Positions 1 through 22,018 of a DNA stretch of 64,000 nucleotides are shown in pieces. The position numbers and the translations under genes are program-made. The notes under the pieces are model-generated. The model ran no database searches. It had not been told where the DNA came from and saw nothing but the letters and a program-made list of their open reading frames with translations. The stretch is taken from contig JBPOIO010000004.1 of the NCBI GenBank assembly GCA_052034405.1, forward strand, positions 751-64,750. The letters are read 5' to 3'. Numbering within the stretch: position 1 is the first letter of the stretch; every line of letters starts with the position of its first letter. Origin of the DNA: Candidatus Magasanikiibacteriota bacterium. GTDB lineage: Bacteria; Patescibacteriota; Patescibacteriia; Magasanikbacterales; UBA922.

Positions 1-1761
1 GCCATTGTTGAAGGCCTTGCCAAAAGAATCAATCAAGGCGATGTACCAGATATTCTCAAACGCAAACGCATCCTTTCGCTCGATCTGACACTCCTTATCT
101 CTGGAACCATTTATCGTGGAGAATTTGAATCCCGCCTTCGCCAAATTATAGAAGACATGAGCAAAAATCCAGATTGTATTTTATTTATTGACGAAATCCA
201 TAATATTATTGGCGCAGGATCAAACCAAGGAACCATGGATGCAGCCAATATCCTCAAACCAGCCCTTGCTCGCGGAAAACTTCGCTGTATTGGAGCCACA
301 ACCCTTGATGAATACAAAAAACATATCAGCAATGACCCAGCACTCGAACGCCGCTTTCAGTCGGTCCAGGTCGAAGAACCAAGTCGTGACGACACGGTCA
401 AAATTTTGACAGGCATTGCCCCACTCTACGAAAAATATCACGAAGTACAGTTTTCTCCAGAACTCTTGGCCCAAATAGTAGATCTTTCTATCAAATATAT
501 CCATGATAATTTTTTGCCAGACAAAGCCATAGATATTCTCGACGAAGCCGCTGCATCTGTACGAGTGAGTACTCCTTCCCACCCACTCAAACAAGCACAC
601 CACGCACTCGCAAAAGAAATTGGAGAAATACGAGAAAAAAAACAAGACTGTATTTTGGAAGAAAAATTTGAAGAAGCAAAAAAACTCAAAAACCGAGAAG
701 AAAAATTGATGAAAGAAATAAAAGCCCTTGAGAAAAAAATAGAAAAAATTCGTCCTGCAAAACACAAAAATGTTACGAGTGAAGATATTGCAAAAGTTTT
801 GGCACGAAAACTTCATACCAATAAAAATATTTTTCTTCAAGATGAATATACAAAGCTCCAAAATCTTGCAGAACAACTCAAAAAAGAAATTATTGGACAA
901 GACAGAGTCATTGAAAATGTTGTCGAGACACTCCAACGTTCATCTTTGGGACTCAAAGGAAAAAACCACCCACTCGCTTCATTTTTATTTGTTGGCCCAA
1001 CTGGTGTCGGCAAAACAGAACTCGCCAAAACACTAGCACGAGAACTCTATCACGACGAAAAAGCCCTCATCAAAATGGACATGAGTGAATTTTCCGAGCA
1101 ACATGGTATTAGCAAACTTCTTGGCTCACCAGCTGGATATATTGGCTATAAAGAACGCAATCATTTTACCGAAAGCCTGCGCAAACGCCCCTATTCTGTC
1201 GTACTTTTTGACGAAATCGACAAAGCCCACCCAGATGTACTCAAACTTTTACTCCAAATTTTGGACGAAGGAGAACTCAGTGAAAGCAATGGAAAAAAAG
1301 TTACTTTTCGTCACGCCGTAGTAATCCTTACAAGTAATGTTGGAGCTGAAATATTTAAACAAAAAAGTATAGGATTTGGAACAGTTGAGACAGAACAGCT
1401 CAGTAAACAAAAAGAAATCAGTGTCATGAGCAGCCTCAAAGAAAATTTTGGAGCCCCACTTCTTGGACGTATTGATGCCACTTGTCTTTTTATGCCCCTA
1501 CAAAAAAATGACCTTGAAACTATTATTCAAAAACGCATGGCCAAGATAAGTTCCCTCCTCGAACAAAAAATTCAAATCACCACAGACATACTCGCACTTG
1601 AACAAATCCTAAAAAATCTTGAACAGGACCTTGGGGCACGACCTATCGAATCCACGCTCGAGCGCATCCTCTACCCTATTTTATTTGCAGCACAAAAAGA
1701 AATACAAGGAAAGAAAAAAGTAAAACTCAGCTATGAAAAAAATAAATTTTTGCTGATATAA
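1..1761 (+). CDS. Clp-family AAA+ ATPase (ClpC-like), 5' end truncated by the window start
   Basis: The frame is open from nt 1. It has two AAA+ modules (Walker B FIDEIH, sensor GATT, second P-loop [19 protein letters not shown]) separated by a short charged linker rather than the long ClpB middle domain. Confidence 0.85.
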   Translation, partial: AIVEGLAKRINQGDVPDILKRKRILSLDLTLLISGTIYRGEFESRLRQIIEDMSKNPDCILFIDEIHNIIGAGSNQGTMDAANILKPALARGKLRCIGATTLDEYKKHISNDPALERRFQSVQVEEPSRDDTVKILTGIAPLYEKYHEVQFSPELLAQIVDLSIKYIHDNFLPDKAIDILDEAAASVRVSTPSHPLKQAHHALAKEIGEIREKKQDCILEEKFEEAKKLKNREEKLMKEIKALEKKIEKIRPAKHKNVTSEDIAKVLARKLHTNKNIFLQDEYTKLQNLAEQLKKEIIGQDRVIENVVETLQRSSLGLKGKNHPLASFLFVGPTGVGKTELAKTLARELYHDEKALIKMDMSEFSEQHGISKLLGSPAGYIGYKERNHFTESLRKRPYSVVLFDEIDKAHPDVLKLLLQILDEGELSESNGKKVTFRHAVVILTSNVGAEIFKQKSIGFGTVETEQLSKQKEISVMSSLKENFGAPLLGRIDATCLFMPLQKNDLETIIQKRMAKISSLLEQKIQITTDILALEQILKNLEQDLGARPIESTLERILYPILFAAQKEIQGKKKVKLSYEKNKFLLI

Positions 1762-1762
1762 T

Positions 1763-2110
1763 ATGTCTGATCAATACCAATGGGCCGAAGCCCTTCGAAA
1801 GGCAAGACAAAATGAACAACAAAAACAGCCACGGCTCAATTTTTCTGCACCCTCAAAAATATCTACCGAACAACTCGAAGAACAAATGGAGTACTACAAA
1901 AAAAAACTTCTTGAAGCCGTACAAAATAAAAAGACAGAAGAAATACAAAACCTTGTTGAGCGTCTTATCAACTGCCATTCACGCCTTACTGCGCTTCTTA
2001 TCAAAAACGAAAAAGACCTTGGTGCATCAGACAATTCCCCTCTTATTGCAGAATATTTGCAAAAATATTTTTCTGACTCTGCCAAACTTCTCGAAACTTT
2101 CCCCACATAA
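1763..2110 (+). CDS. hypothetical small protein
   Basis: 115-aa ORF starting 2 nt after the Clp gene. Composition is host-like. No recognisable motif. Confidence 0.4.
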   Translation: MSDQYQWAEALRKARQNEQQKQPRLNFSAPSKISTEQLEEQMEYYKKKLLEAVQNKKTEEIQNLVERLINCHSRLTALLIKNEKDLGASDNSPLIAEYLQKYFSDSAKLLETFPT

Positions 2111-2119
2111 TATACTTCC

Positions 2120-3154
2120 ATGCCCCTTACTGACAAAATTCGAGGAAAACTCATGAGCCCACTCAAAAATGCACTTCTTGGATTTGCTGTTTCGGTTTCC
2201 CCAGGGGTTCTCACCCGAGAAAGTGAAAAAACACTGGGTGCTGCTGTAGAAAAAATTGCAGAAGATATTGCTGAAAATACAGCACAGAACTTTGAAGAAC
2301 AACTCAAAAATTTTGGACCAAATAAAGGCCCTACTACGAATGCCGCAAATCCAAGTGAAGATGTACCCGCAGCAGATAATTTTCCGGATACTCCAAAAAA
2401 TGATATAATGCCAGACAAGAATATAGCAAAAGCTCTTGAAGCAGAAGCTGCAACACAACCAAATTCTCCAACAGAAGAAGCAAATCCAAAACCCAAAAGC
2501 TCCGAAGAAAATTCTACAGAACAAGGAAATCTTGCTGCGCAGGGTGAACAGCAAGGGACAGGAGAAAAAAAAGAAAAAAATCCAAATGAAACTCCAGAAG
2601 AAAAAGCTGAACGAGAACAAGAAGAAGCAGAAGAAAAAGCATACCAAGAAGAATTGGAAACAGCACGCAAAAAACTTCCCTCAGGAAAAGGCGCTATAAC
2701 CCAAACGCTCAACTCGCTTATTAATAGACGAAAAATTAAAAAATTAGAAAAACAACTTGCAAAACTTGGAGCAAACCTCAAACAATGGCAAAGAGAACTT
2801 GATAAAAAGAAAAAAATTCTTAGTCGCACAGAAAAACAAAAAAAACGTCTTGAAAACAAAAAAAAACGAATCGACACAATACGAAAATTTTTACGTGTTT
2901 TCAACTGGACAGCAGGATTCCTTATCTTTTTCTGGTTACTCGAGATTACTATCCCTTGGAAAAAAGTATTGGATGGAGCAGCACTTCGACTAGAACAAAT
3001 GATTGCCCCACTTGAAGAAAAAATCAAAAGCATAAAAAAAGTTATCACCGTTATAGAAAAACAAATAAAAACAGTACAAAAACAAATGACAGCAATAACC
3101 ATGCAAATATATGCGCTCTATAACCAAGGATTATTTGAACAGAGAAAAACATAA
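2120..3154 (+). CDS. hypothetical lysine/glutamate-rich coiled-coil protein with C-terminal transmembrane segment
   Basis: 344-aa ORF. It has long K/E-rich heptad-like stretches and a hydrophobic segment (FLIFFWLLEITIPW). The antisense 402-aa ORF is a poly-F/S artefact of the K-rich codons. Confidence 0.45.
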   Translation: MPLTDKIRGKLMSPLKNALLGFAVSVSPGVLTRESEKTLGAAVEKIAEDIAENTAQNFEEQLKNFGPNKGPTTNAANPSEDVPAADNFPDTPKNDIMPDKNIAKALEAEAATQPNSPTEEANPKPKSSEENSTEQGNLAAQGEQQGTGEKKEKNPNETPEEKAEREQEEAEEKAYQEELETARKKLPSGKGAITQTLNSLINRRKIKKLEKQLAKLGANLKQWQRELDKKKKILSRTEKQKKRLENKKKRIDTIRKFLRVFNWTAGFLIFFWLLEITIPWKKVLDGAALRLEQMIAPLEEKIKSIKKVITVIEKQIKTVQKQMTAITMQIYALYNQGLFEQRKT

Positions 3155-3183
3155 AATATTCCCTATTTTTAAATCCCAATAGT

Positions 3184-4398
3184 ATGGACAAAAAACGTAT
3201 TCTTATAGCTCTTGGATTTCTCCTCCTCTGTATAGGACTTGGATATTTGATTTATCGTTTCTTCTTTGCAAGCGCACCGACAGAGACACTCCCAAGCAGT
3301 GAAGGAACAACAAGCCCTACAATAAATAGCTTCCCAGAGGCTGGACTTGGTGGAAAAAAAGGCAGTACAAGTACCACAAATACCACACTCCCAAGCTCTG
3401 CGACAAATCCAAATGCAGGTCAATTGGGAGAAAACAAAAAACCTATTGTACAACTTTTGAGTGACTCTATTCTTGGAGTACAATCTGGCAAAGGTGGCAT
3501 GCGCTACTACAACCAACAAGATGGAAAATTTTATCGTATTGATGCCAATGGCAAACAAATTCCACTCGACGACAAAACATTTTTTGATGTTCAAAAAGTT
3601 ACTTGGGCACCAGGAAAAGACGAAAGTATCCTCGAATACCCAGATGGATCAAACACCTACTATAATTTTGAAACAAAAAAACAAGTTACCCTTCCAAAAC
3701 ACTGGGAACAATTTTCTTTTGCCCCAGACAGTGACAAAATTGCAGCCAAAAGTATTGGTATTTCAGCAGACAACAACTGGCTAATTAGTGCCTCACCAGA
3801 TGGACAAAACGTAAAACTCGTTGAACCCCTTGGAGAAAATGCCGATAAGGTTGATATCAACTGGTCACCAAACCAACAAGTCATTGCTACCTCTCGAACC
3901 GGTGAACCTCTTGGCGCCGACCAACAACAAGTACTTTTAATTGGACAAAATCACGAAAATTTTAAATCTATCACCGTTGAAGGCCGAGGTCTCGTAAGTG
4001 AATGGTCACCCCAAGGTGGAAAACTCCTTTACAGTGTTTACAGTGAACGCAGTGACTTCAAACCAGAACTCTGGATTACCAATGCTGCACCAGGAACAGC
4101 CGGAACCGAACGTAAACTGCTCAACGTCAATACCTGGGCAAACAAATGCACATTTTCCGACGACCGCTATGTATACTGTGGTATTCCAACATCCCTTGAT
4201 ACCGGGGCGGGTCTTGTCCCAGCTATTGCCGATCAAACTCCAGATAAAATTTTTAAGATTGACACACAAACTGGAGTAAAAACAGAACTCGCAACAGATG
4301 GAACCCACGTTATTGGAAGTATGTTTATAGGAGACGACGGAAAGACTCTTTATTTCACCGATAAAAACCAAAATGGATTATTTCAAGTAAATCAATAA
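3184..4398 (+). CDS. N-terminally anchored TolB-like beta-propeller repeat protein
   Basis: N-terminal TM helix, then a low-complexity Thr/Ser linker. Repeated SPDG/WSP(N/Q)G segments recall PD40/TolB-like blades. Confidence 0.5.
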   Translation: MDKKRILIALGFLLLCIGLGYLIYRFFFASAPTETLPSSEGTTSPTINSFPEAGLGGKKGSTSTTNTTLPSSATNPNAGQLGENKKPIVQLLSDSILGVQSGKGGMRYYNQQDGKFYRIDANGKQIPLDDKTFFDVQKVTWAPGKDESILEYPDGSNTYYNFETKKQVTLPKHWEQFSFAPDSDKIAAKSIGISADNNWLISASPDGQNVKLVEPLGENADKVDINWSPNQQVIATSRTGEPLGADQQQVLLIGQNHENFKSITVEGRGLVSEWSPQGGKLLYSVYSERSDFKPELWITNAAPGTAGTERKLLNVNTWANKCTFSDDRYVYCGIPTSLDTGAGLVPAIADQTPDKIFKIDTQTGVKTELATDGTHVIGSMFIGDDGKTLYFTDKNQNGLFQVNQ

Positions 4399-4399
4399 T

Positions 4400-5035
4400 A
4401 TGAGCACAAAAAAACTTCTCCTTGTTTTTGTCCCACTTCTTGTACTCGCAGGCCTAGCACTTTTTATTCGTATCATCCAATACGAACCACTTTTCCCAAA
4501 ACAAACAGACAAGACAGATAAAACAGTACTCCAAGTTCCTATCTATGGAGAAGATCCTATCACTGGAGACAAAAAATCAGCAGTCACACTCATTGCCTTT
4601 GAAGACTTTGCCTGTGAAAATTGTAAACTTGAATCAGAGCTCCTCACCCAAGTTTTAAAAGAAGCCCCAAATGCACTCAAAATCGTTTGGAAAATTTTTC
4701 CTATCACTCGCTATCCAATAGATTCAACACTATCAGCAGAATATAGTTACTGCGCGAATCAACAAGGAAAATTTGAGGAGTTCAAATCCTATGCCTTTGA
4801 AAATGCCGAAAACTTATCTGAAAGCACACTCCAAACCATTGCTACACAAATAAAACTTGATAGCAAAAAACTAAAAGCCTGTCTTGATTCAAAGGCTCCA
4901 ACTCCTTCTCTTGAAGCCAACAAAAATCTTGCAGATGCTCTTCAAATTCAAGTCCTTCCAACTATGTTTTTGAACAATAAACAAATTGACGCACCAAAAA
5001 CTATTGAAGGATGGAGAACCTTACTTGGAATTTAA
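4400..5035 (+). CDS. DsbA-like thioredoxin-fold protein (CxxC = CENC), membrane-anchored
   Basis: N-terminal TM segment, a CENC redox motif, and overall DsbA-like length and layout. Confidence 0.6.
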   Translation: MSTKKLLLVFVPLLVLAGLALFIRIIQYEPLFPKQTDKTDKTVLQVPIYGEDPITGDKKSAVTLIAFEDFACENCKLESELLTQVLKEAPNALKIVWKIFPITRYPIDSTLSAEYSYCANQQGKFEEFKSYAFENAENLSESTLQTIATQIKLDSKKLKACLDSKAPTPSLEANKNLADALQIQVLPTMFLNNKQIDAPKTIEGWRTLLGI

Positions 5036-5040
5036 TTTCT

Positions 5041-6324
5041 ATGAAATTTACAAAAAAACTTTTTTTTCTCAGTTTTCTTACACTTGCTGCTACTGTATTT
5101 TTTGAACCATCTATTTCACTCGCAGGACCTATCACAGACACATACAATGCCGGCACTTCTGTCAACGAACTCCAACAACAAGCAGGAAAACCAACAAATC
5201 GAATTAAAATTCCAGGAATTACTTATAGTAATATAAAAGAAGTAAAAGAAGACGGTGACACCTATCTCTACGTTCCCTATATTGGTGAATACTTATCTGT
5301 CGTATATCGCTACCTCGTAGTAATTGCAGGACTCGTTGCTGTCATAGTCATTATTATTGCAGGTATCCAGTGGACTGCATCTGGTGGAAATAGTAGTAGT
5401 ATTGAATCTGCAAAAAACAGAATTGTAGGAGCCCTCACCGGTCTTGGACTTGCTGTTGGATCTTATATTATTCTCTATACCATAAACCCAGAACTGGTAA
5501 ATTTTCGAAGCTTGAAAATAAAATATATTCCTGGAGTACCTGTTGAAGTAACCTATGACGAAGGTGAAGATCCTACAGCAAAACCTTCTACTGGTGGATA
5601 TCTTGGTGGAAATCCAAAACCTTCGGGAAAGGCAAAATGTATTTATGAGAAATTTACCCCAAATATAAAAGTTGGAGAAAAACCACCTATTCGACAAATA
5701 AATCTTCTTGGTATGGGGCGTTCTATTCCCGTCAATAGTAACAGTTACGATGCGTGGAAAAAAGCATCTGATGAAATACTTGCAAGTCAAGATCCTGAAG
5801 TACTTGGATACCTTCAATACATGCGAGATTTCCGAGATAAAAAAGTACCTGACTTACTTGGAGAAAAAGATGGAGCGGGGGTCGTATCACAAAGTCTTGG
5901 AAAAGGTATCGGTATAAGTCGAGCTACAGGAGCAGAACTTGGATCACTCATCCAAGATATGCATGTCATGGGACTCGCCGTTGATTTTATGACACGAAGT
6001 AATTGGGATATCAATTGGGGTGGAACAAAAAAAGGAAAAGCAGCCAGTGGTTACTGTGAAAATTATAAAAAGACACTCACAAAAATGAAAAATGGAGACT
6101 ACGGAGAACAGCTCAAATCCGATCCCTATAAAATGTATGAACGACTTGATAAAAAGATTGAACACTGCATGAACAAATTTGATAATGGAAATGATCCATT
6201 TACATCTATTCCCCAAGGAATGATTGATATCTTTGTCCGTAATGGGTTTTACTGGGGTGGATATGGTTGGGGCAATAAAATGAGAAGCGATGCTATGCAC
6301 TTTGAGTACTGGGGAGGTTGCTAA
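5041..6324 (+). CDS. secreted/anchored protein: TrbC/VirB2-like two-helix pilin-like hairpin fused to a LAS/peptidase M15 (VanY-like) domain
   Basis: Signal peptide MKFTKKLFFLSF. Hairpin motif [50 protein letters not shown] is shared with the ORF at 57592. C-terminal motifs MHVMGLAVDF and AMHFEYWGG match the His/Asp and HxxY zinc-binding motifs of VanY/M15 peptidases. Confidence 0.6.
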   Translation: MKFTKKLFFLSFLTLAATVFFEPSISLAGPITDTYNAGTSVNELQQQAGKPTNRIKIPGITYSNIKEVKEDGDTYLYVPYIGEYLSVVYRYLVVIAGLVAVIVIIIAGIQWTASGGNSSSIESAKNRIVGALTGLGLAVGSYIILYTINPELVNFRSLKIKYIPGVPVEVTYDEGEDPTAKPSTGGYLGGNPKPSGKAKCIYEKFTPNIKVGEKPPIRQINLLGMGRSIPVNSNSYDAWKKASDEILASQDPEVLGYLQYMRDFRDKKVPDLLGEKDGAGVVSQSLGKGIGISRATGAELGSLIQDMHVMGLAVDFMTRSNWDINWGGTKKGKAASGYCENYKKTLTKMKNGDYGEQLKSDPYKMYERLDKKIEHCMNKFDNGNDPFTSIPQGMIDIFVRNGFYWGGYGWGNKMRSDAMHFEYWGGC

Positions 6325-7496
6325 AATTCTATATTCTTGTTGTTATGTTTTTGTTTTACCGAAAGGTTCTTCTCATTCTTTTATTTTTTAGTATTTTATT
6401 TCCATTTCAATCCTTGAAAGCACAAGTTGATTCTGATGTATTTATACCTCCAGAAAATGAATACTTCAAAGCAAAAGTAACTGAAATTATTTCAAGAACA
6501 GGAGATGAAAGTCTACCTACTTTCCAACAGTTTAAAGCAACAGCTCTTGAAGGGACTTTTCAAGGAAAAGAAATTACTATCACACAAGAAGCAATTCATG
6601 GTATATACCAAATAAAAAAAGTACAAAAAGGAGAAACACTGGTTATCTTTAGAAATATACTGAGTGAACCAGAATTTACAGTTGAAGATAAATATAGAAT
6701 TCCCGCCCTCTGGTGGCTCCTCGCATTATTTTTGGGATGTGTTTTTCTATTTACTGGCAAAAAAGGATTTCGAGCAACATTGAGTCTCCTTGGAAGTCTC
6801 ATAGTCATTGTTTTTTTCATGGTTCCTCAAATAGCCCGAGGAGCGAATCCACTTCTTATTAGTTTGCTAAGTGCTCTTTTTTTACTTCTTTTATCTATTT
6901 ACCTTGGACATGGTGTAAATAAAAGAAGTACCATTGCACTTATTAGTAGTCTTAGCGTCATTGGGCTTTCTGTCTTTCTCGGAGAATTTTTTATCTACTT
7001 TGGAAAACTCTTTGGACTTGGAAGTGATGAAGCAGTACTTCTCCAATTTGGAAATCTTGGGAATATTAACCTTCGAGGACTTTTACTCGCTGGGATTATT
7101 ATTGGAACAATCGGAGTTCTTGATGATGTCACAGTTGTACAGGCAGCAACCGTAGAAGAAATTCATAGTCTTGACCCAAACATAAAAAGAGATGTACTCT
7201 ATAAAAAAGGTATGTCTGTAGGAAAAGAACATATCCTTTCAATGGTCAATACACTCATCCTTGCCTATACAGGAGCAGCACTTCCACTCGTACTTTTTTT
7301 CACTTTTCAAGAACACATACACCAACCATTTTGGGTAAAAATGAATAGTGAAAGTATTTCTGAAGAAGTTGTTCGTTCGCTCATTGGAAGTATTGTACTC
7401 ATCTTTGCGGTACCACTTACCACATGGATTGCTGCTTATTCTTATAACAAAAGCAATACAAATAAAATGTATGACGAAAGAAACAAAAACATTTGA
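6318..7496 (+). CDS. YibE/F-like multi-pass membrane protein
   Basis: About 8 predicted TM helices with GVLDDVTVVQAATVEEI and LAYTGAALP motifs reminiscent of the YibE/F family. Confidence 0.5.
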   Translation: MLKFYILVVMFLFYRKVLLILLFFSILFPFQSLKAQVDSDVFIPPENEYFKAKVTEIISRTGDESLPTFQQFKATALEGTFQGKEITITQEAIHGIYQIKKVQKGETLVIFRNILSEPEFTVEDKYRIPALWWLLALFLGCVFLFTGKKGFRATLSLLGSLIVIVFFMVPQIARGANPLLISLLSALFLLLLSIYLGHGVNKRSTIALISSLSVIGLSVFLGEFFIYFGKLFGLGSDEAVLLQFGNLGNINLRGLLLAGIIIGTIGVLDDVTVVQAATVEEIHSLDPNIKRDVLYKKGMSVGKEHILSMVNTLILAYTGAALPLVLFFTFQEHIHQPFWVKMNSESISEEVVRSLIGSIVLIFAVPLTTWIAAYSYNKSNTNKMYDERNKNI

Positions 7497-8820
7497 TTGT
7501 GCTCACTGCGGCGCTCAATACCAAAAATGGGTTGGGCGCTGCTCCGAATGTGGAAAATGGGGCAGTATTGCAGAGCAAGCAGTAAGTGAAAAACCAGATA
7601 CACGTTCGAGTAAAAGCGGAAAAACTTTTGCCGCAGGCAAACCAGTCAAACTGAGTGATATACAATCTACAAATGTACAAAGAATGCAAAGCAAAAGTAG
7701 CGAGCTCAACCGCGTGCTCGGTGGGGGCCTTGTCCCAGGCAGTTTTATTTTACTCGGAGGTGAACCTGGTATTGGAAAATCTACCCTCTCCATTCAAATT
7801 GCTTCCATGATTCCACAGTGCCTCTATATTTCTGGGGAAGAATCAGTCGAGCAAATAAAACTGCGGGCGGATAGACTCAAACTCGAAACCTCGACAATGC
7901 ATCTGCTCAACGAAACACATCTTGAAACAATACTTGCAACCATTGATGCGGTCAAATCCCCTCTGGTTATCATTGATTCAATACAAACCATGTTTACGAG
8001 TGAAGTCGACGGTGAACCTGGCAATGTTTCACAGCTGCGTGCCTGCGCCGTCAAACTTCTTGAAGCCGCAAAATCTACAAACACCGCAATTGTGCTGATT
8101 GGCCACGTCACCAAAGACGGTAGTGTAGCAGGACCTCGCACACTCGAACACCTGGTTGACACGGTCCTCTACCTCGAAGGTGACCGCTACCATGATATCC
8201 GAATACTCCGTGCAGTAAAAAACCGTTTTGGTTCCACCGATGAGGTTGGTATGTTTGAAATGAATGAAATGGGTTTGAACGATATTGAGAACCCATCGGC
8301 AATGCTGCTCGCTGAACGCGGCGACACAATGCCTGGAAGTGTGGTTACTTGTCTTAGTGAAGGAACGCGATCACTCCTTGTCGAAGTACAAGCGCTCATC
8401 ACCAAAACATCTTTTGGTTATCCTGTACGAAAGGCAAGTGGATTTGATCTCAACCGCCTGCATGTACTCATCGCCGTACTCCAGCGCCGTGCAGCCTTGA
8501 ATTTGGCCCAATACGATGTGCATATAAACGTAGTGGGTGGAGTTCTTGCCGACGAACCTGGAGCAGATCTCGCAGTATGCCTCGCTATCGCAAGTGCCTA
8601 CAAAGACAAGGCCCTCGGCAACGACCTCGCCGTCTTTGGAGAAGTTGGCCTTGGCGGAGAGATTCGCTCCGTACGATTTTTGGAGAAAAAAATCAAAGAA
8701 TGTGAAAACCTGGGAATGAAACGAGTACTCACAACACTCGGACCAAAGGGAAAAGCGACAAGTACGAAAGTAAAAATAATGAATGTCAAAAATATTGATG
8801 AACTGATCAAACACACCTAA
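7471..8820 (+). CDS. radA: DNA repair protein RadA (Sms)
   Basis: ATG at 7471 gives MTKETKTFDC. It has a C4 zinc finger (CAHCGAQY..CSECGKWGS), a RecA-like P-loop (GGEPGIGKST), KNRFG and a Lon-like C-terminal domain. It overlaps the upstream gene by 26 nt. Confidence 0.9.
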   Translation: MTKETKTFDCAHCGAQYQKWVGRCSECGKWGSIAEQAVSEKPDTRSSKSGKTFAAGKPVKLSDIQSTNVQRMQSKSSELNRVLGGGLVPGSFILLGGEPGIGKSTLSIQIASMIPQCLYISGEESVEQIKLRADRLKLETSTMHLLNETHLETILATIDAVKSPLVIIDSIQTMFTSEVDGEPGNVSQLRACAVKLLEAAKSTNTAIVLIGHVTKDGSVAGPRTLEHLVDTVLYLEGDRYHDIRILRAVKNRFGSTDEVGMFEMNEMGLNDIENPSAMLLAERGDTMPGSVVTCLSEGTRSLLVEVQALITKTSFGYPVRKASGFDLNRLHVLIAVLQRRAALNLAQYDVHINVVGGVLADEPGADLAVCLAIASAYKDKALGNDLAVFGEVGLGGEIRSVRFLEKKIKECENLGMKRVLTTLGPKGKATSTKVKIMNVKNIDELIKHT

Positions 8821-8845
8821 ATAAAATATTTGAAAATAAAAAATC

Positions 8846-8872
8846 CACCCAAAAAGGGTGGTTTTATTTTGA
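8846..8872 (+). terminator. rho-independent terminator downstream of radA
   Basis: Hairpin ccaccc-aaaaa-gggtgg followed by a T-run. Confidence 0.5.
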
Positions 8873-8992
8873 TTTTTCTCGCGCTCGCCTCCTCGAAGGT
8901 CGATCGTTGCATTCGCTCGGTGAAGAGCGCGAGAGGTGCCCGTCTGAGGGGCTGGGTGGGCCGTCGCACGAGGCGACGTCGGTGGGCGCGGG

Positions 8993-9295
8993 TCAGGCCG
9001 CGGGCTGGGACTCCGTGGAAGGAGCAGCGTTCTTCGTCGACGCCTGCTGGAGAGTGTAGCCTACGATCTCCATGTAGGCGCCCTTCTGAAGAAGCCGGAG
9101 CTCCTCCGGATCGAGCAGCGCCCGCCAGGCCAGGATGAACTGGTGGAGCGCCCCGAATCGCCGAAGCGTACCGACCATGTTCATGACCTCGGACCCAAAG
9201 GTCCGCTGTTCTCCCTCGCGGAAGCGCACCTTGATGGTGCGGACCTTCCCAGAAGAAAAATCAGCGAGCTTCAGACCCTTGCGCTGATGCTCCAT
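8993..9295 (-). CDS. small GC-rich ORF of unknown function (ATG at 9295; an upstream GTG at 9370 is possible)
   Basis: Minus-strand ORF with high third-position GC in a region of sharply elevated GC. The plus-strand alternatives are Arg/Pro-rich low-complexity. No motif recognised. Confidence 0.35.
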   Translation of the reverse strand: MEHQRKGLKLADFSSGKVRTIKVRFREGEQRTFGSEVMNMVGTLRRFGALHQFILAWRALLDPEELRLLQKGAYMEIVGYTLQQASTKNAAPSTESQPAA

Positions 9296-9440
9296 GATCG
9301 CCCCGATGATGGAATACAATTCCAATTCGCTCACGAGAACAAACTTTCTTTGAAATGTGGCAGCGCCCACTCTTACGAAGCCCTTCGCAAAAGCTTTTCT
9401 GCCAAATCCGCCGCCAGTATAGCATAAACAATAAAAAAAT

Positions 9441-9465
9441 CAAGGTCTTTTGAACCTTGATATTC
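9441..9465 (-). terminator. hairpin terminator downstream of guaB (minus strand)
   Basis: Inverted repeat atcaaggtc-ttttga-accttgat with an A/T run. It also overlaps a candidate -35 for the small ORF at 8993. Confidence 0.4.
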
Positions 9466-9478
9466 TTGAGTTATTAAC

Positions 9479-10906
9479 CTATTCGGATACCTTATTCCCC
9501 CGCCCCAAACTTTCATTCCAGCCACTACTCGTGATTTGAACAAATTCTGCGTTCTCCTGCATCTCTCGGATATTACTGGCACCGCAGTAGCTAATGGCGC
9601 TTTGCAAGCCTTTTTTGAGCCCCTTGACTACATCCTCTACAGCCCCTTTATAATCCACGAGTGTCGCAATCCCCTCTACAAAAATATCCATTTTTTCTTT
9701 TATGTGTTTTCCAACTTCATGTTCTTTGCGAATATGATTGCTATCATAAGAAGCACTGCCTGCATATTTTTTGTATCTTTTCCCATCTTTCATAATAATC
9801 ATGCCTGGTGCTTCGTCTGTTCCTGCAAAAAAACTTCCCGAATAGATACTACTGGCTCCTGCGGCAATTGCTTTGGCCACATCGCCTGGATATTTCATTC
9901 CACCGTCGGCTGTTACTGGTATGCTATAATTTTTTGCAACTTCACAGACATTCATCACAGCAGTAAATTGCGGAACCCCGGCCCCACTCATCACTCGCGT
10001 TGTACAAACTGGCGAAGGACCAATACCGACTTTGAGCCCATCTGCTCCAGCTTCGATCAAATCCTGCGCTGCTTCGGCAGTCGCAATATTTCCCACCATT
10101 ACGTCAACCGAAAAATTTGCTTTGAGTTCACGAAGTTTTTGAATAACAAAATCCGAATGCGCATGCGCAACGTCGAGGACCAAGACATCAACGCCTACTG
10201 CAATGAGTGCCTCTGCGCGTTCCACAGCGTCTTTGACCCCAACTGCCCCTGCAACCATGAGACGCCCTTTTCGATCCCTCGAGGCATTTGGCCAATATTC
10301 AAGTTTACTAATATCTTGTGTTGTAATAAGGCCCCGCACACGACCATTTTCAATCAGTGGCAATTTTTGAAATTTATAATGCTGCAGTACTTTTTTGGCA
10401 TCTGACAAACTAATTCCATATTTGGCAGTGACCAATTTTTCTGCCGGAGTCATGAGCTCTCGAATAGGCCTATCCAAACTTTCCTCAAACATATAGTCGC
10501 GGTGCGTGAGCATACCCACAAGCTCTTCGCCATTCATAATAAGCAGACTACTCACGTTGGAACGCTTCATCACTTCTTTTGCTTCACGAAGTGTCAGTCG
10601 AGGACTCACAGAAACAGGATCTTCCACGATTGAACTCGTACTTTTTTTTACCAATTTTACTTCTGCTGCCTGCTCTTCAATCGTTCCAAACTGATGAATC
10701 ACACCCAGTCCCCCTTCACGCGCCATGGCAATCGCCATTTTGTGCTCGGTTACTGTTGCCATATTGGCACTGACAAATGGCGTATTGAGAATAATATTTT
10801 TGGTAAATAAACTTCGCACATCTGCTTCGGATCGAGATTTGAGTGGACTTCGCTTTGGAACGAGCAAAACATCCTCATAGGTAAATCCAGTCGGTATTAT
10901 TTTCAT
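9479..10906 (-). CDS. guaB: inosine-5'-monophosphate dehydrogenase
   Basis: [20 protein letters not shown] start at 10906. It has CBS domains and a catalytic [11 protein letters not shown] loop. The upstream in-frame extension is probably not translated. Confidence 0.9.
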
Positions 10907-10931
10907 ACAATGCAGTGATAAAAAATAAATA

Positions 10932-13055
10932 CTATTCAAGGTGAACTTTTTTCTCCCAATCTCGCAGCTTTTCTTTGAGTGTTGGGTAATTTTTGAAATC
11001 AATGCCCCGAGCCAAGTCCCGGGCCAAACGAATTATATCACTATCCTGGAGACTCGCAAGTCGCAAATTCATCATACCACTTTGAGATGTCCCATATACT
11101 TCACCTGGGCCCCGAGTTTGCAAATCGTATTCGGAAAGTTCAAATCCGTCGAGTGTTTTTTCAAAAAATCGCAAACGGTCCATGGCAGATTGCGAACTCG
11201 AATCTGTAAGCAAAAAACAATAGGACTGATGCGTACTTCGCCCTACTCGTCCACGAAATTGATGCAGCTGAGCCAGACCAAAAAGCTCTGCATCTTCGAT
11301 CATCATCACGCTTGCGTTTGGAATATTCACACCTACTTCCACAACTGATGTAGAAACCAAAATATCTGTTTCACCCGCAGCAAACTTTTTCATTTTTTCA
11401 TCTTTTTCATTTCCTTTCAATTTGCCATGCAAAAAATCCACGCGAAATTTTGGAAATATTTCTTGCGATAATTTTTCGTATTCTTTGAGCACGGTTTTCT
11501 TTTCATCAAGTGATTCTATTTGTTTTTCATCTTTTGTAGATTCTGTAATGAGTGGACAAATTACAAAAACTTGTCTTCCCTGCGCCACCTGCGCACGAAT
11601 AAAATCATAGGCCTTCTGGCGATTTTTTGGCTCCACAAGGCGCGTCAAAATTGGCTTTCGTCCAGATGGCTTTGTTTTGATAATCGACAAATCAAGATCT
11701 CCATAAAGCGTGAGGGCAAAGGATCGTGGAATCGGAGTTGCTGTCATACTCAGAAAATGCGGCGTAATATTTTTTTGACCAGATTTATCCCGAATAGTTT
11801 TGCGCTGCTCTACCCCAAATCGATGCTGTTCATCCACTACAACAAGTCCAAGTTTTTTGAATTTTACGTTTTCACTGAGGAGTGCGTGTGTTCCAATAAT
11901 AATTTGCACTGTTCCGTCTTTTATTTTTTCAATCACTTCTTCTTTTTGAGATTTTTTTGCCTTCGTAGTAAATGCATAATTCAAAACTTGAAACTGCGTA
12001 CGCGAGAGCAAAGCAATTTTGACATCATATTTTTCAAATATTTTTTGCAGCGTTTCATAATGCTGACTTGCGAGTATTTCTGTCGGCGCCATAATCACTG
12101 CCTGATGACCATTCAAAATAGCATTGTACATGGCCATTGCCGCTACAACAGTTTTACCACTTCCGACATCTCCCTCGAGCAAGCGATTCATGGGTTCGAC
12201 ACGCTCCAAGTCCTGCAAAATTTCCCAGGCTGCAATTTTTTGGTCTTTCGTCAATTCAAAAGGCAAAGCCGCAACAAATTCTTTTATAGAGGCCTCTTGA
12301 AAAACAAGTTTTGGTGCTTTGAATATTTTGAGTTCTTGACGAATCATTTCACTGCGAAGTTGCAAAATAAATAGCTCATCAAATTTGAGACGGTATTCTG
12401 CTTTTTTCAGATCTTCTGTGGAACTCGGAAAATGAATCGCCAGCAGTGATTGTTCCAAAGCTTCCAAATTTGCTTTTTGCAAAATATCCTCGGGTATCCA
12501 ATCCTGAATATCTTTGGCAAAAGGCAAAACCTGCGTGAGCAAAAATCGCATTTGCTTTTGGGTAATGCCATTTGTCACAGAATATATTGGTACAATGCGC
12601 GCAGTATTACTGGTATTTTCCGAAACTTTTTCATAACTCGGTGACTGCATTGTAACTCCGAGCATGTCATGCTTGACGATTCCAGAAAGATAAATAGTCT
12701 CCCCTGCTTTGAGAATTTTTCCAATAAAAGGTTGGTTGAACCATACCACATGCATGCGACTGCTCTCGTCGCTGACCACTGCCTCGGTGAGGAGCATATG
12801 TTTGCGTGGACTACGTTTGGTAGCAATTTGTTCTATTTTTACCCGAACCGTCACATGTGTCCCTTCCTCGAGTTCTTCAATGGGGACCACCTGACTATAA
12901 TCCTCGTAGCGAAAGGGATAATAAAAAAGCAAATCTTCAAGAGTGTAAATACCCAAAAGAGCGAGGCGTGTTTCAAGGGCCTTGCCAACGCGGTGGAGTT
13001 TGCTAATAGGGGTTTTGAGACCATTTGTGAGATCCATAGAAAGATATTGTACCAC
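10932..13055 (-). CDS. recG: ATP-dependent DNA helicase RecG
   Basis: Wedge/OB N-terminal domain. Helicase motifs GDVGSGKT, DEQHRFG, SMTATPIPRS and QLHQFRGRVGR. The true start may be the internal Met at 13037. Confidence 0.9.
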   Translation of the reverse strand: MVQYLSMDLTNGLKTPISKLHRVGKALETRLALLGIYTLEDLLFYYPFRYEDYSQVVPIEELEEGTHVTVRVKIEQIATKRSPRKHMLLTEAVVSDESSRMHVVWFNQPFIGKILKAGETIYLSGIVKHDMLGVTMQSPSYEKVSENTSNTARIVPIYSVTNGITQKQMRFLLTQVLPFAKDIQDWIPEDILQKANLEALEQSLLAIHFPSSTEDLKKAEYRLKFDELFILQLRSEMIRQELKIFKAPKLVFQEASIKEFVAALPFELTKDQKIAAWEILQDLERVEPMNRLLEGDVGSGKTVVAAMAMYNAILNGHQAVIMAPTEILASQHYETLQKIFEKYDVKIALLSRTQFQVLNYAFTTKAKKSQKEEVIEKIKDGTVQIIIGTHALLSENVKFKKLGLVVVDEQHRFGVEQRKTIRDKSGQKNITPHFLSMTATPIPRSFALTLYGDLDLSIIKTKPSGRKPILTRLVEPKNRQKAYDFIRAQVAQGRQVFVICPLITESTKDEKQIESLDEKKTVLKEYEKLSQEIFPKFRVDFLHGKLKGNEKDEKMKKFAAGETDILVSTSVVEVGVNIPNASVMMIEDAELFGLAQLHQFRGRVGRSTHQSYCFLLTDSSSQSAMDRLRFFEKTLDGFELSEYDLQTRGPGEVYGTSQSGMMNLRLASLQDSDIIRLARDLARGIDFKNYPTLKEKLRDWEKKVHLE

Positions 13056-13112: not shown

Positions 13113-13184
13113 GCACTCGTCGTTCAATGGATAGGACGCTAGTTTGCGGAACTAGCAATCTAAGTTCGATTCTTAGCGAGTGCA
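13113..13184 (+). tRNA. tRNA-Arg, anticodon GCG (read from loop TTGCGGA)
   Basis: 72-nt cloverleaf folded by hand. The acceptor stem GCACTCG/CGAGTGC is perfect. The D-stem is GTTC/GGAC with GG in the loop. The anticodon stem CTAGT/ACTAG is perfect. The T-stem is CTAAG/CTTAG with a TTCGATT loop, and the discriminator is A. No CCA is encoded. Confidence 0.8.
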
Positions 13185-14669
13185 CACGTCGGGAAGTTGC
13201 GCCAAAGCGCGACTTACCTGGAACGGATACTTTGCTTCAACTAGCAGAGTTTTTTGTTTCAGCGCGAGGTTCGAGAAGAGGGTCTGGCAGACCTCGCGTT
13301 TCTTCTCGGGCTCGCCAGCTTCGAACTTTTTCTTCGCTAGAACTGCGAACGAAATCCCCTCCATCAAGGGTTCGATGAGTCCCGCGACTGGACTGGCTCG
13401 TTCCAGTTGCGCACGGAGCGCAATCTGCTCGCTTGTGAGGGCTCTGCGGTCCTCATCAAGCTCCTCGCCGGTAATGCGACCCTCAGCAGCTAGATGACGA
13501 AGGTTTCGGAGCTTCTCGTCGTTCTTCACCAGTTTCGCTTCGACCGTTTGGACGACCCTCGACTCCGAATCGCAGACCTCAGCGCGAACGCTCCTCAGCT
13601 CGTCCAGCACGGCCTCCGCTACGTCAGGCGGGAGAGTGAGATCGTTGATGCTCAACGCGAGTTGCTCTTCAAGTGACACTTGCTCGACGGACGGCTCGTC
13701 GCAGTAGAGATATGCACGACTCTTTCGGCAGCAATGGTAGTACGTGTAGCGGGTTCCGAATCGGTTGACCTTGTTCTCCGCAGTGACGACGGACGCACAA
13801 GAACCGCATCTCAATATGCCACGGTATGGAAACCGGTTCGTTTGTGGGCGCGGTTCAGATGCACCCAGGCGCTTGAACTGCTCCTGTACTTCCTCGAACT
13901 CGGCCCAGGAGACGGCGGCGGGATGCGTGCCGGGGAACGATCCCTCCTTCCGAACCATCAGCCCGGCATAGAACGGGTCGCGCAGTGTCCGGTACAACAA
14001 CGACTGGGAAATCAACTTCCCACCGTGGCTCCGCATCACCGGAGTCGTCAGGTGCCACTCCTTGCGGGCTCGGTTGAGGATATCGGACATTGGCACCCCC
14101 ATTCGCCGCAATCGAAACGCCTCTCGAATTAGAGGAAGTCGCACCGGATCAGCCAGGAGCTTCATTGTCGAACGGTCGCGGGTGTAGCCAATTTTCGGAG
14201 CACCAGGCCAAAGGCCCTGTAGCAGTGCCTGCTTGTTGCCACGACATATGTTCTTGCGGAGGTCATCAATGTCTTTCGTGGCCATCCCGAAGATGATGGA
14301 CATCATGAGCTTGTCGTCACCTGACCCAGTGAACGCCCGCTCGGGCGTGAGGATCTCCTTGATCGCTCCGGTGCCGAGCAGCCACATGATGGAGCCACCA
14401 TCGATGGGGTTCCTCGCCAGACGGTTGAGATGCCAGCACAAGACTGCGTCGGCTTTCTTCGCGTTGAGCATGGCCATGACTCTTGCGAACTCTGGCCGGC
14501 CTGGTTCCTTCGCAGACCGCGTTTCGCGGATCGGCTCCCCCACGATGAGAAGATTGCGGGCCTGAGCAAATGAGAGAAGCTCCCGCTCCTGGGCTGGTAT
14601 TGAGAGCTGCTGCTTCCCGTCGTCGAGCGTGGATTTCCGCACGTAGACTACGTATTTCAATGGGTTCAT
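13173..14669 (-). CDS. large serine recombinase (integrase) of the GC-rich island
   Basis: N-terminal resolvase catalytic motif YVRKST..QQLSIPAQ with the serine nucleophile. It also has a recombinase domain, a zinc ribbon (CGSCASV...YYHCC) and a coiled-coil. Its stop codon lies inside the tRNA T-stem. Confidence 0.9.
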   Translation of the reverse strand: MNPLKYVVYVRKSTLDDGKQQLSIPAQERELLSFAQARNLLIVGEPIRETRSAKEPGRPEFARVMAMLNAKKADAVLCWHLNRLARNPIDGGSIMWLLGTGAIKEILTPERAFTGSGDDKLMMSIIFGMATKDIDDLRKNICRGNKQALLQGLWPGAPKIGYTRDRSTMKLLADPVRLPLIREAFRLRRMGVPMSDILNRARKEWHLTTPVMRSHGGKLISQSLLYRTLRDPFYAGLMVRKEGSFPGTHPAAVSWAEFEEVQEQFKRLGASEPRPQTNRFPYRGILRCGSCASVVTAENKVNRFGTRYTYYHCCRKSRAYLYCDEPSVEQVSLEEQLALSINDLTLPPDVAEAVLDELRSVRAEVCDSESRVVQTVEAKLVKNDEKLRNLRHLAAEGRITGEELDEDRRALTSEQIALRAQLERASPVAGLIEPLMEGISFAVLAKKKFEAGEPEKKREVCQTLFSNLALKQKTLLVEAKYPFQVSRALAQLPDVCTR

Positions 14670-14685
14670 ATTGTTGTCAAGTTAG

Positions 14686-14892
14686 TTAGTCAAAGAGGAC
14701 CACGTAGAAAGCTGCCACGAGGTCCTTCGCTACGATTCTGAGCTCGGCCGGTGACAAATCCCGTGGATGGTGTGGGTCACTGCGAAGGGCTTCACCAAGC
14801 CGAATGAGGAAGGCGGCGCTGGGCTCGTAGTTGCCGAGACATGCTAACCTCATACGCTGTGATTTGTGGTCATTAGATGAGTGCATATGCAT
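14686..14892 (-). CDS. hypothetical small protein next to the integrase (possible excisionase/RDF-like accessory)
   Basis: 68-aa ORF immediately upstream of and co-oriented with the recombinase. No motif. The functional guess is by position only. Confidence 0.3.
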   Translation of the reverse strand: MHMHSSNDHKSQRMRLACLGNYEPSAAFLIRLGEALRSDPHHPRDLSPAELRIVAKDLVAAFYVVLFD

Positions 14893-14950
14893 TCATCGTA
14901 ACAACTCATTGCTTGGTCGTCCCGTCGCACCGTGATGCGAAAATGAACAA

Positions 14951-14980
14951 AAGAAGAACTCCACGACCGGAGTTCTTCTT
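14951..14980 (-). terminator. perfect 12-bp-stem hairpin (aagaagaactcc/ggagttcttctt), terminator-like on the minus strand
   Basis: Perfect inverted repeat with a 6-nt loop. On the minus strand it is followed by ttgttcatttt. It sits between the transfer-gene block and the integrase pair. Confidence 0.35.
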
Positions 14981-15242
14981 CATGCTTGTCATCTCTCTTC
15001 TTCTGCCCTGTGGATAGCGTGGTCAGAATCCGACCATCGTGCTACGGGACTACATCTTGCGGCTATGAGAAGATATACTATGTAAGCCGCGAAATCGGGC
15101 AAGACGAGAGTTTGAAAATGTCGTCACCCCAGTCTCGCGGAAATATGTGCCCTAGGCAGGCCATTCATCCCAACAAGAGAGGAGGTGACATTAGGTAGAC
15201 TACAACTTGTGCATATTCTGTCAAGTGTAGGTACCAATAGCT

Positions 15243-15944
15243 ATGACAAACAATGAATCAGAACAACGCGTGCTGAGCGAGAAATCGCTCGTGTTCAACG
15301 TGGAAGTTCTTCGCAAGAACTTCAGCAAGCACGTGGTCACGCAAGAAGACCTCGCCACCATGACCGGCGTGCCGAGGAGCGCGGCTGCGATGGAGTCCTC
15401 CCAACTGCCCGGCCGTGGTGTTCGCCGGAGTTCGTTCGTCATAGCGTGTCTGGTCAAGGTCAACGTGGGGTCGCCCTTGGGCCAGTCCGCCGGCTTCGCG
15501 TCGAAGCACCTCCTTCTCGTCCGTGGTTTCCCCGAGTCGGTTCGGGGCGGCCTTCGCCGCCTCAGATTCGGTTCGCGCGACCGGACACGACTCCGCGCTC
15601 AGCACCTGCGAGGCGTCGGGGGTCATCGTGGTGGTCGGTCGCGTCTTCACGAGCCCGACGCTACGCGCGGCGGATCGAGTGGTCGAGCGCGCGAAGGGTG
15701 CCGTGGTGTCTGCCCCTGGTGTGGCCCCCTGGTGCGAGCCCCCGGTCAGTCCGACACACCACCCCTCGGCTTCTCATCTTCTTGGAATCACTCGGTTTTC
15801 AAGGAACGCAAAACAAGGAATCAGCCCCTTCTTGGGGCATCTCGTTCATCCGGCGCACGGACGCGGACGACCGCGCCACTCTGCGCTTCCACCTCGCGTT
15901 CGCCAAGGTCCGCGAGCCGGTACCAGCCGCTCGTCAGCGCGTAG
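15243..15944 (+). CDS. XRE-family HTH regulator (N-terminal about 65 aa); the long Arg/Gly-rich C-terminal continuation is doubtful
   Basis: LRKNFSKHVVTQEDLATMTGVPRSAAAMES resembles an XRE HTH. The rest of the 233-aa frame is low-complexity, typical of open frames in GC-rich DNA, and overlaps the Replic_Relax gene on the opposite strand. Confidence 0.4.
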   Translation: MTNNESEQRVLSEKSLVFNVEVLRKNFSKHVVTQEDLATMTGVPRSAAAMESSQLPGRGVRRSSFVIACLVKVNVGSPLGQSAGFASKHLLLVRGFPESVRGGLRRLRFGSRDRTRLRAQHLRGVGGHRGGRSRLHEPDATRGGSSGRAREGCRGVCPWCGPLVRAPGQSDTPPLGFSSSWNHSVFKERKTRNQPLLGASRSSGARTRTTAPLCASTSRSPRSASRYQPLVSA

Positions 15945-16693: not shown

Positions 16694-16705
16694 GAGTGTG
16701 AGCCG

Positions 16706-17026: not shown

Positions 17027-17050
17027 GCCTTGCCCTCTTTCGAGTTGTTT

Positions 17051-19075: not shown

Positions 19076-19116
19076 GCGCCAGGAGGAATGTGAGGCTGCG
19101 GGGACGGACGCCGGAA

Positions 19117-20121: not shown

Positions 20122-20182
20122 GATTATCTCCGCAGGTGATTGTGGAGAAGGTCATACGCCGACGAACAAGTGGCCGCAAGGT

Positions 20183-20198
20183 GGGAAATCGATTTCCC
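20183..20198. promoter_or_regulatory. perfect 16-bp palindrome GGGAAATCGATTTCCC in the divergent promoter region (candidate operator)
   Basis: Perfect palindrome between the divergent parB-like gene and the plus-strand operon. A near-identical copy is at 25386–25401. Confidence 0.4.
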
Positions 20199-20297
20199 GG
20201 GGCTTACCGGTTCCGCGACGCTTGACGGTTGGTCATCAGGCTGCTAACCATCCCGACAAGCTATGAAATCCAGCACAATAACTTGTAACAACACGGT

Positions 20298-22005: not shown

Positions 22006-22018
22006 ATCGAGGCGACCT

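Follow-up and report, generated by a model that had tools for sequence, protein, structure and literature searches.

An open reading frame (ORF) at positions 5041-6324 of a 64,000-nucleotide (nt) stretch of DNA from a Candidatus Magasanikiibacteriota bacterium, an ultrasmall member of the Patescibacteria (contig JBPOIO010000004.1 of assembly GCA_052034405.1, positions 751-64,750 of the forward strand; hereafter the window) very probably encodes an exported, DsbA-dependent M15 peptidoglycan peptidase that is tethered by a pilin-family hairpin. The further reading, that the tether is a functional VirB2/TrbC-type pilin module and that the enzyme has a VirB1-like role coupled to a Patescibacterial type IV secretion system (T4SS) or pilus, is evenly balanced in our judgement. 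By its sequence, the protein appears to belong to a large class of proteins of the candidate phyla radiation (CPR), in which one pilin module carries interchangeable wall hydrolases. The ORF is real, as had been predicted from the letters of the DNA, and the motifs quoted in that prediction were located at amino acids (aa) 109-128 for the hairpin, 308-316 for HVMGLAVDF, and 419-426 for MHFEYWGG. An alternative ATG upstream at 5011, which is the start in the public annotation (P0001, there called hypothetical only), would extend the protein to 437 aa by 10 extra residues and leave it otherwise unchanged.

The N-terminal part of the protein has the layout of the pilin superfamily, namely a signal peptide followed by two hydrophobic helices with a short basic loop. 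A similar signal peptide starts all 65 homologues found with the full-length query. The putative cleavage site was placed from the sequence itself. In the pre-hairpin segment, which is kept across hydrolase types and contains the invariant residue P58 (alignment of 27 homologues), the AlphaFold2 (AF2) model has predicted local distance difference test (pLDDT) values below 50 at aa 22-58 and strands at aa 66-70 and 73-78. Hydropathy places the first transmembrane helix at about aa 84-112, the basic loop SGGNSSSIESAKNR at aa 113-126, and the second helix at about aa 127-148, and AF2 models helices at aa 79-113 and 118-148 with a pLDDT of 85-90. Directly after the second helix there is a conserved strand, INPELVNFRSLKIKY / NPELVNFRSLKIKY. 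Pfam T4SS_pilin (PF18895) matches aa 87-144 with E=1e-5 and 26.0 bits at a cut-off of 26.6, whereas the sole NCBIfam match is sub-threshold, to the pilin-like family NF045849 of a Mycoplasma integrative and conjugative element. The hairpin shares 49% identity with a stand-alone 139-aa pilin, P0066, with common motifs up to ILYTINPDL, and some close relatives match TrbC (best E=6.7e-8). Thus, the TrbC/VirB2-like character that the original prediction had proposed for the hairpin holds, and it probably belongs to the Patescibacterial VirB2/TrbC-like pilin family PF18895 rather than to an unrelated family of membrane anchors. The protein departs from the pilins in size, since it is not a small stand-alone subunit of about 100-190 aa but has 427 aa and is extended by 50 residues on the N-terminal and by 265 on the C-terminal side.

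The hairpin is also strongly constrained. In nine syntenic loci, listed in the order L005, L001, L003, L004, L007, L008, L010, L009, and L011, the identity to the window is 95, 83, 85, 85, 61, 55, 53, 44, and 52% for the 84-aa hairpin module, 93, 84, 90, 85, 63, 53, 61, 60, and 63% for RadA, and 87, 64, 69, 62, 44, 39, 47, 25, and 49% for DsbA, while the C-terminal part of ClpC gives 90, 71, 78, 70, 53, 50, 49, and 43%, with no value for L011. The hairpin module is therefore conserved at the level of RadA and more strongly than ClpC, DsbA, and the neighbouring PD40-like protein, and this includes its non-membrane loop (SGG...AK.RI). Because of this conservation, loop included, the hairpin looks like a functional pilin module rather than a passive anchor, and it would probably make specific contacts, be it with itself, with small pilins, or with a machinery.

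The C-terminal domain is predicted to be a zinc peptidase of the M15/LAS type that retains the full set of three metal ligands, in agreement with the original prediction. Pfam Peptidase_M15_4 matches aa 307-423 with E=8.4e-7 and 29.9 bits, above the cut-off of 25, and the corresponding PF13539 label is precomputed for most full-length homologues. The zinc ligands H308, D315, and H420, as well as D417 three positions before the distal histidine, are invariant in the 27 aligned homologues. An inactive binding module was considered and rejected, since all four catalytic or ligand residues are invariant. The domain contains four cysteines (200, 339, 376, and 427), all of them within the exported part, of which C427 never varies in the same alignment and C200 and C339 hardly do. 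The H-x6-D and D-x-x-H motifs are separated by a large helical insertion at about aa 325-400. Modelled alone, aa 198-427 reach a pLDDT of 93.7 and a predicted TM-score of 0.90. The nearest solved relatives are Ply500, LysB4, and YodJ, with the Ply500 L-Ala-D-Glu peptidase (2vo9) as the best one by profile (E=2e-4). In a comparison with BFVD, the domain matched phage M15 proteins (probability 0.92-0.99, E=6.5e-3), which is a weak fold match. At detectable similarity, this M15 subtype was seen solely behind pilin hairpins. For both parts of the protein, the domain similarity is far beyond chance, and a surface-displayed lytic enzyme, acting on the wall of a partner or on the own wall at a secretion apparatus, is the most plausible reading of the sequence.

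All 65 proteins found with the full-length query combine the signal peptide with one internal hairpin copy, and the M15 domain is present in some of them only. The others carry Amidase_2, NlpC/P60, Peptidase_C39_2, SLT, VanY, or GDSL plus SLT domains as cargo, and there are weaker Pfam matches to CHAP-like or SLT-like domains. A word-indexed search with the 84-aa hairpin gave one protein, and an exhaustive phmmer search of cluster representatives was used instead, which yielded 17,755 representatives at E<=1e-3 and 3,210 at E<=1e-10. Nearly all of the best 150 representatives are proteins of 300-1100 aa in which the hairpin is internal, a few of them containing 2-10 copies. A Pfam census was taken on a sample of 105 of the hairpin-matching representatives, roughly half of which have wall-hydrolase domains. 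T4SS_pilin was detected in 90 of them (E<=1e-3), together with SLT (17), Amidase_2 (13), VanY (8), C39_2 (7), NlpC/P60 (6), GDSL_2 (6), TrbC (4, with the best E-value given above), M15 (2), M15_4 (2), and one case each of M23, CHAP, and GH18. The proteins with 2-10 tandem pilin hairpins per polypeptide, among them P0074 (1147 aa), P0197 (966 aa), P0109, and P0113, could be either pilin polyproteins or pilin arrays merged by gene calling. Seven tandem small pilin genes (123-223 aa), which are also matched by the hairpin hidden Markov model (HMM), are found at positions 8722-12163 of locus L015, where the array adjoins genes for a solute-binding protein and for tRNA synthetases, not VirB4.

The gene for the hairpin protein occupies a conserved slot with the order ClpC, a gene for about 115 aa, a coiled-coil membrane protein, a PD40-like membrane protein of about 404 aa, DsbA, the hairpin protein, RadA, and RecG. 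The catalytic domain encoded in this slot differs from locus to locus. It is of the M15 type in L001/L002, L007, and L008, where a gene of the YibE/F family comes next, and this gene does not come next in the other loci, which have Amidase_2 (L003), NlpC/P60 (L004), a CHAP-like domain (L005/L006), a distant M15 domain (L009), a tandem of C39_2 and M15 (L010), or a tandem of a 614-aa hairpin protein, with no Pfam hit on record, and an SLT protein (L011). The closest relative of the window, L005, has a DNA identity of 84-86%. In blastn, its homology to the window covers only positions 1-5529 and 7471-8820, resuming at the start of RadA, and in a 60-nt sliding comparison the identity is 0.8-0.9 up to about 5510 and about 0.4 past about 5530. 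The homology breaks at 5525 in the comparison with L003 and at 5529 in that with L004. At the protein level, all slot versions agree through ...NPELVNFRSLKIKYI and then diverge (after LKIKYI). Since the homology between the window and L005 stops at 5529 and restarts at 7471, the exchangeable unit is 5530-7470. The identity between the window and L001 is about 71% over the cassette, which equals that of the flanks. Recombination at a point directly past the hairpin has exchanged the catalytic part, here along with the YibE/F gene, and in the simplest history it was the L005 lineage that replaced M15 and YibE/F by the CHAP-like domain.

Placed between the M15 gene and RadA, the YibE/F gene is part of the segment in which the window departs from L005. 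It accompanies only the closer M15 versions, and its gain or loss goes along with that of the M15 domain. It was considered as a general immunity gene and rejected in this role, since it is missing from the distant M15 loci and from every non-M15 locus; searching the literature for YibE gave irrelevant matches only. No immunity-like gene was found after the Amidase_2, NlpC/P60, and CHAP-like versions, where RadA follows directly. The two conserved membrane proteins of the slot, which are always found upstream of DsbA in the syntenic loci, are encoded in the window at 2120-3154 (coiled-coil protein) and 3184-4398 (404-aa protein, with faint PD40/WD40-like beta-propeller signals), and they may form an envelope module with the hydrolase. 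On the other side of the slot, the region between RadA and the next conserved gene (8821-9428) has no counterpart in L005 and no Rfam match at the gathering threshold; the 2-kb block that encloses it has a raised GC content of about 49%.

The gene for the DsbA-like protein ends 5 nt before the hairpin gene, and all syntenic loci examined have a DsbA gene in front of that for the hairpin protein. Together with the conservation of the cysteines, this pairing makes DsbA the likely folding partner of the cysteine-containing exported domain. A similar arrangement is present at a second place in the window. As had been noticed originally, the hairpin is shared with the ORF at 57592, and the two proteins can be aligned by BLASTP over the hairpin only (49 of 80 positions identical, 61%, E=2e-28), the remainder being unalignable. 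A local hairpin HMM run on the six-frame translation of the window detected exactly these two ORFs. Gene conversion between the two paralogues as the source of the hairpin similarity was rejected, since their protein identity is only 61%. The T4SS_pilin score of the paralogue, 27.4 bits, exceeds the Pfam cut-off. Its C-terminal domain matches no Pfam or NCBIfam family, with 17 cysteines in the whole protein, and may be an adhesin or another enzyme. The DsbA-like protein encoded directly upstream of it is 29% identical to the first one and lacks the second active-site cysteine. The order DsbA, 514-aa protein, UvrA is also conserved in the relative L016, and orthologues of the paralogue are common (511-536 aa; P0048-P0060). 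A third protein with a DsbA domain is encoded at 48928-50391 on the minus strand.

Features of the window that belong to the hairpin-tethered peptidase, its exchangeable cassette, and its paralogue (positions in the window; aa numbering from the ATG at 5041).
Feature	Position	Strand	Evidence or detail
Whole gene, putative pilin-module-tethered M15 peptidoglycan peptidase, 427 aa	5041-6324	+	ORF, Pfam, alignment, AF2
Sec signal peptide, aa 1-28, MKFTKK-LFFLSFLTLAATVFF-EPSISLA/GP (slash, putative cleavage site)	5041-5124	+	Sequence; hydropathy peak at aa 7-25
Extracytoplasmic pre-hairpin segment, aa 29-78: disordered aa 29-58, then beta-hairpin motif KPTNRIKIPGI..YLYVPY	5125-5274	+	
VirB2/TrbC-like pilin module (PF18895), aa 79-162	5275-5526	+	Pfam, AF2, hydropathy, identity to stand-alone pilin
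Flexible acidic Pro/Gly-rich linker, aa 163-197 (about 35 residues)	5527-5631	+	Low AF2 confidence
M15 (LAS-type) catalytic domain, aa 198-427	5632-6321	+	Pfam, domain model, profile match
H308-x6-D315 zinc-binding motif (HVMGLAVD)	5962-5985	+	Invariant in 27 homologues; aligns with H-N-Y-G-V-A-V-D of Ply500
D417-A-M-H420, catalytic Asp and third zinc ligand	6289-6300	+	Invariant in 27 homologues; aligns with D-Y-P-H-F-E of Ply500 and LysB4
Replaceable cassette: linker, M15 domain, and YibE/F gene	5530-7470	+	Between the pilin module (left) and the RadA start (right)
YibE/F-family polytopic membrane protein	6318-7496	+	Pfam YibE_F E=1.6e-66
DsbA-like thiol-disulfide oxidoreductase, 211 aa, CENC motif	4400-5035	+	Thioredoxin_4 E=4e-20, DSBA E=2.7e-9
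Second DsbA-like gene, CPYS motif	56737-57552	+	Thioredoxin_4 E=8e-23; directly upstream of the paralogue
Paralogue: signal peptide, pilin module (aa 104-180, nt 57901-58131), and 330-aa Cys-rich C-terminal domain	57592-59136	+	

Taken together, these features would fit the following mechanism. The protein would be exported by the Sec pathway and its signal peptide cleaved, as the sequence suggests. Hydropathy and the signal peptide predict that the two helices then insert as a hairpin with the basic loop in the cytoplasm and the flanks outside, which would be the topology of a VirB2-type propilin. If the signal peptide is cleaved, the topology would be N-out, loop-in, C-out, and because of this topology the catalytic domain is presumably extracytoplasmic. 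There, the adjacent DsbA would oxidise the four conserved cysteines of the outside domain, as the gene pairing and the cysteine conservation indicate. The M15 zinc domain, whose motifs are closest to those of phage L-Ala-D-Glu endopeptidases, would cut the stem peptides of peptidoglycan from its linker of about 35 residues (pLDDT below 50 at aa 164-174 and low until about 190), at the start of which the cassette homology breaks. The pilin module would finally couple the enzyme to a T4SS or pilus, so that the wall would be cut where the pilus or channel passes, a VirB1-like role combined with a VirB2-like subunit.

Several observations in Patescibacteria bear on this last step. PF18895 pilins are widespread there, often near virB4 and sometimes in arrays, whereas VirB1 is unrecognisable in most Patescibacteria with VirB2-like pilins (PMC12102498). 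Both Magasanikbacteria assemblies (class ABY1) that appear in the available part of Table S1 of that study are scored VirB4-positive (PMC12102498). In Southlakia epibionticum, the PF18895 pilins SEML1_0014-0019 sit within an essential T4SS cluster, which also encodes SEML1_0006 with a lysozyme/cysteine-peptidase and, beside VirB4, SEML1_0007 with a Hedgehog/DD-peptidase (M15-fold) domain, and epibiotic growth requires both the T4SS and its pilins (PMC10633639). By analogy, the fusion in the window protein would mirror this neighbourhood of separate pilin and hydrolase genes. A coupling to a T4SS or pilus is favoured because the hairpin is constrained and homologous to stand-alone pilins, because of the Southlakia parallel, and because VirB1 is generally absent.

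A number of results weigh against this coupling or against the pilin assignment behind it. The T4SS_pilin score of the window protein is 0.6 bits short of the Pfam cut-off, and a PDB sequence search with a hairpin-only profile found no solved conjugative pilin; phmmer with the whole protein against PDB gave nothing meaningful either. When the full-length model was compared with PDB by Foldseek, the matches were limited to proteins with long helices, such as AcrA and MexA, and a conjugative pilus subunit (8dfu, TM 0.64), but the latter match is no better than that to other helical hairpins, e.g., ATP synthase subunit c, and for this reason the search is uninformative on the hairpin. For the catalytic domain, Foldseek against PDB gave only a weak match to Ply500 (E=1.4), so that the bond specificity cannot be read from the structure. 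In the literature, no demonstration of pilus formation by PF18895 proteins was found, and an extension of 265 residues (linker and domain) per subunit would be hard to pack in a VirB2-type filament. A Pfam scan of 17 selected window ORFs detected no T4SS gene, and the precomputed Pfam labels of 11 related loci show no VirB4, VirB6, VirB3/PrgI, or VirD4 within ±8-10 kb. Instead, the neighbours of the slot are housekeeping genes such as ClpC, RadA, and RecG.

The main rival is a plain housekeeping autolysin with a passive anchor, which would trim or open the own wall in growth or division and whose catalytic domain would be replaceable since any cut suffices. We regard it as rather unlikely, yet it is favoured by a slot that is always filled, that lies among housekeeping and envelope genes (ClpC, coiled-coil protein, PD40-like protein, DsbA, RadA) with no T4SS genes near, and that has no immunity-like gene after the Amidase_2, NlpC/P60, and CHAP-like versions. 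The tether and the linker of about 35 residues would put the enzyme in the own wall layer, and modular domain exchange is typical of autolysins and endolysins, too. However, a passive anchor should keep its hydrophobicity and not its sequence, whereas the hairpin, including the loop, is conserved at the level of RadA. The homology to stand-alone pilins is likewise difficult to reconcile with an autolysin, for which a signal peptide plus a hairpin with domains on both sides would be a needlessly complex anchor, and the catalytic swap between genomes with 84-86% identical flanks suggests a diversifying pressure. A further rival is a pilus-borne, polymorphic anti-host effector. In this case, the fusion would be extracted from the membrane and become part of a T4SS pilus or of its tip, where it would open the host wall with a cassette matched to the host wall chemistry. 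This seems improbable to us. The conserved N-terminal carrier, the unrelated C-terminal enzymes, and the sharp junction are those of a polymorphic-toxin architecture, and the cargo (SLT, amidase, NlpC/P60, CHAP, M15/VanY, M23, GDSL lipase) matches the repertoire of interbacterial effectors; the bacteria-killing T4SS of Xanthomonas reportedly delivers peptidoglycan hydrolases. In VirB2-type pili, as in the structures of the F and T pilus, both termini point outward, so that a C-terminal cargo would be exposed. In the closer lineages, the YibE/F gene moves along with the M15 cassette and might provide a cognate factor, protective or accessory, and the need for the T4SS and its pilins in epibiotic growth (PMC10633639) would fit as well. 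Against an effector, most cassettes lack a candidate immunity gene, and before its extraction the enzyme would sit in the wall of the producer, whose sparing needs explaining. The packing of the 265-residue extension on pilin subunits, the lack of literature evidence for PF18895 pili and for filament incorporation, and a locus unlinked to T4SS genes also count against it.

Rather doubtful, too, is the general form of this idea, in which the Patescibacterial VirB2-like pilin module would be a common vehicle by which exchangeable envelope-degrading enzymes reach the T4SS pilus, so that the fusions would decorate or tip the filament and cut the host wall. If true, it would account for the "missing VirB1" as well as for how epibionts breach their hosts, and cassette recombination would track host wall chemistry. 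By analogy with the processing of TrbC and VirB2 propilins, it is also conceivable, if very improbable, that the protein is a pro-protein, in which a cleavage after the hairpin near INPELVNFRSLKIKY would yield a small mature pilin and set the hydrolase free in soluble form. TrbC and VirB2 are known to be trimmed at the C-terminus, the segment after the second helix is strongly conserved in all cargo types and followed by a disordered linker, and the stand-alone pilin P0066 ends about 25 residues past the same INP.L motif. However, neither a protease gene nor a recognisable cleavage motif was identified, and the model places the post-hairpin segment as a beta strand alongside the pre-hairpin strands, which would suggest a structural rather than a processing role.

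Two further observations in the window concern other regions. Another wall hydrolase, without a pilin hairpin, is encoded at 36548-37795 on the minus strand; it is a secreted coiled-coil protein that ends in a Peptidase_M23 domain (EnvC/LytM-like). A segment of about 14.3 kb (13187-27524), which is absent from L005 and has a GC content of 54-69% versus about 38% in the backbone, starts directly after a tRNA-Arg(gcg) gene (13113-13185). Serine recombinases at 13173-14669 and 26268-27380 (both on the minus strand), a cytidylate-kinase-domain protein, and an 809-aa ORF without family match belong to this segment, for which there are two readings, integrated foreign DNA or a chimera of the assembly.

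A large part of bacterial diversity falls within the Patescibacteria, whose life in attachment to other microbes depends on a T4SS and its unusual pilins as essential components. Most of their genomes apparently lack VirB1, the customary helper for cutting the wall. No description of pilin-hydrolase fusions was found in the searchable literature; both parts of the protein are of known kinds, but their fusion, how widely it occurs, the replacement of cassettes in a conserved slot, and the pairing with DsbA seem not to have been described so far. A widespread class of proteins with pilin module and hydrolase connects pilins with wall degradation in a concrete way that can be tested. The exchange of cassettes, with its sharp boundaries in a conserved chromosomal slot, would constitute a natural experiment on host-driven diversification, and the hairpin-hydrolase proteins represent a defined set of enzymes for tests on host-type versus self-type peptidoglycan. 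This should be of interest for the T4SS and Patescibacteria field, and it rests so far on inference.

In comparison with known systems, the hairpin resembles the PF18895 pilins such as SEML1_0014-0019 (Wang et al., 2023; Quinonero-Coronel et al., 2025) in its signal peptide, the two hydrophobic helices with a short basic loop, and the motif ...G..AK.RI...GL...SY..L..INP.L, and it shows the mentioned 49% identity to the stand-alone member. These pilins have about 120-190 aa and are often encoded in arrays and often beside virB4, whereas the window protein has 427 aa, an internal hairpin, and a C-terminal enzyme, and its gene is located in a housekeeping neighbourhood without T4SS genes. The M15 domain shares the H-x6-D and D-x-x-H motifs residue for residue with the M15C endolysins Ply500 (2vo9) and LysB4 (6akv) and with CwlK/YodJ-type M15B enzymes (4ox3), but only the two motif regions align, and the window domain has about 75-90 extra helical residues between the motifs, an N-terminal subdomain at aa 198-300, and four conserved cysteines. 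The VirB1-like hydrolases of Gram-positive systems, namely PrgK of pCF10, TraG of pIP501, CwlT of ICEBs1, and TcpG of pCW3, likewise come from monoderms, combine a membrane anchor with one or more wall-hydrolase domains (PMC12102498), draw on the same repertoire (SLT, CHAP, NlpC/P60, LytM/M23, muramidase), and presumably open the wall for the T4SS. They have a simple N-terminal anchor and genes inside the T4SS operon, whereas the window protein has a membrane-anchored peptidoglycan-hydrolase domain of the M15 type on an anchor that is a pilin homologue, and its gene is located outside any T4SS cluster. With the polymorphic toxins (CdiA-CT, Rhs, and the LXG toxins of type VII secretion systems) and the peptidoglycan-hydrolase effectors of the Xanthomonas T4SS, the slot shares a conserved N-terminal delivery part, unrelated C-terminal enzymes behind a sharp junction, and an envelope-directed cargo. 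In contrast to the toxins, it has no consistent downstream cognate immunity gene and is a single conserved chromosomal slot without orphan cassettes, and in contrast to the soluble secretion domain or the C-terminal XVIPCD signal of toxin and effector systems, the carrier here would be an integral-membrane pilin module.

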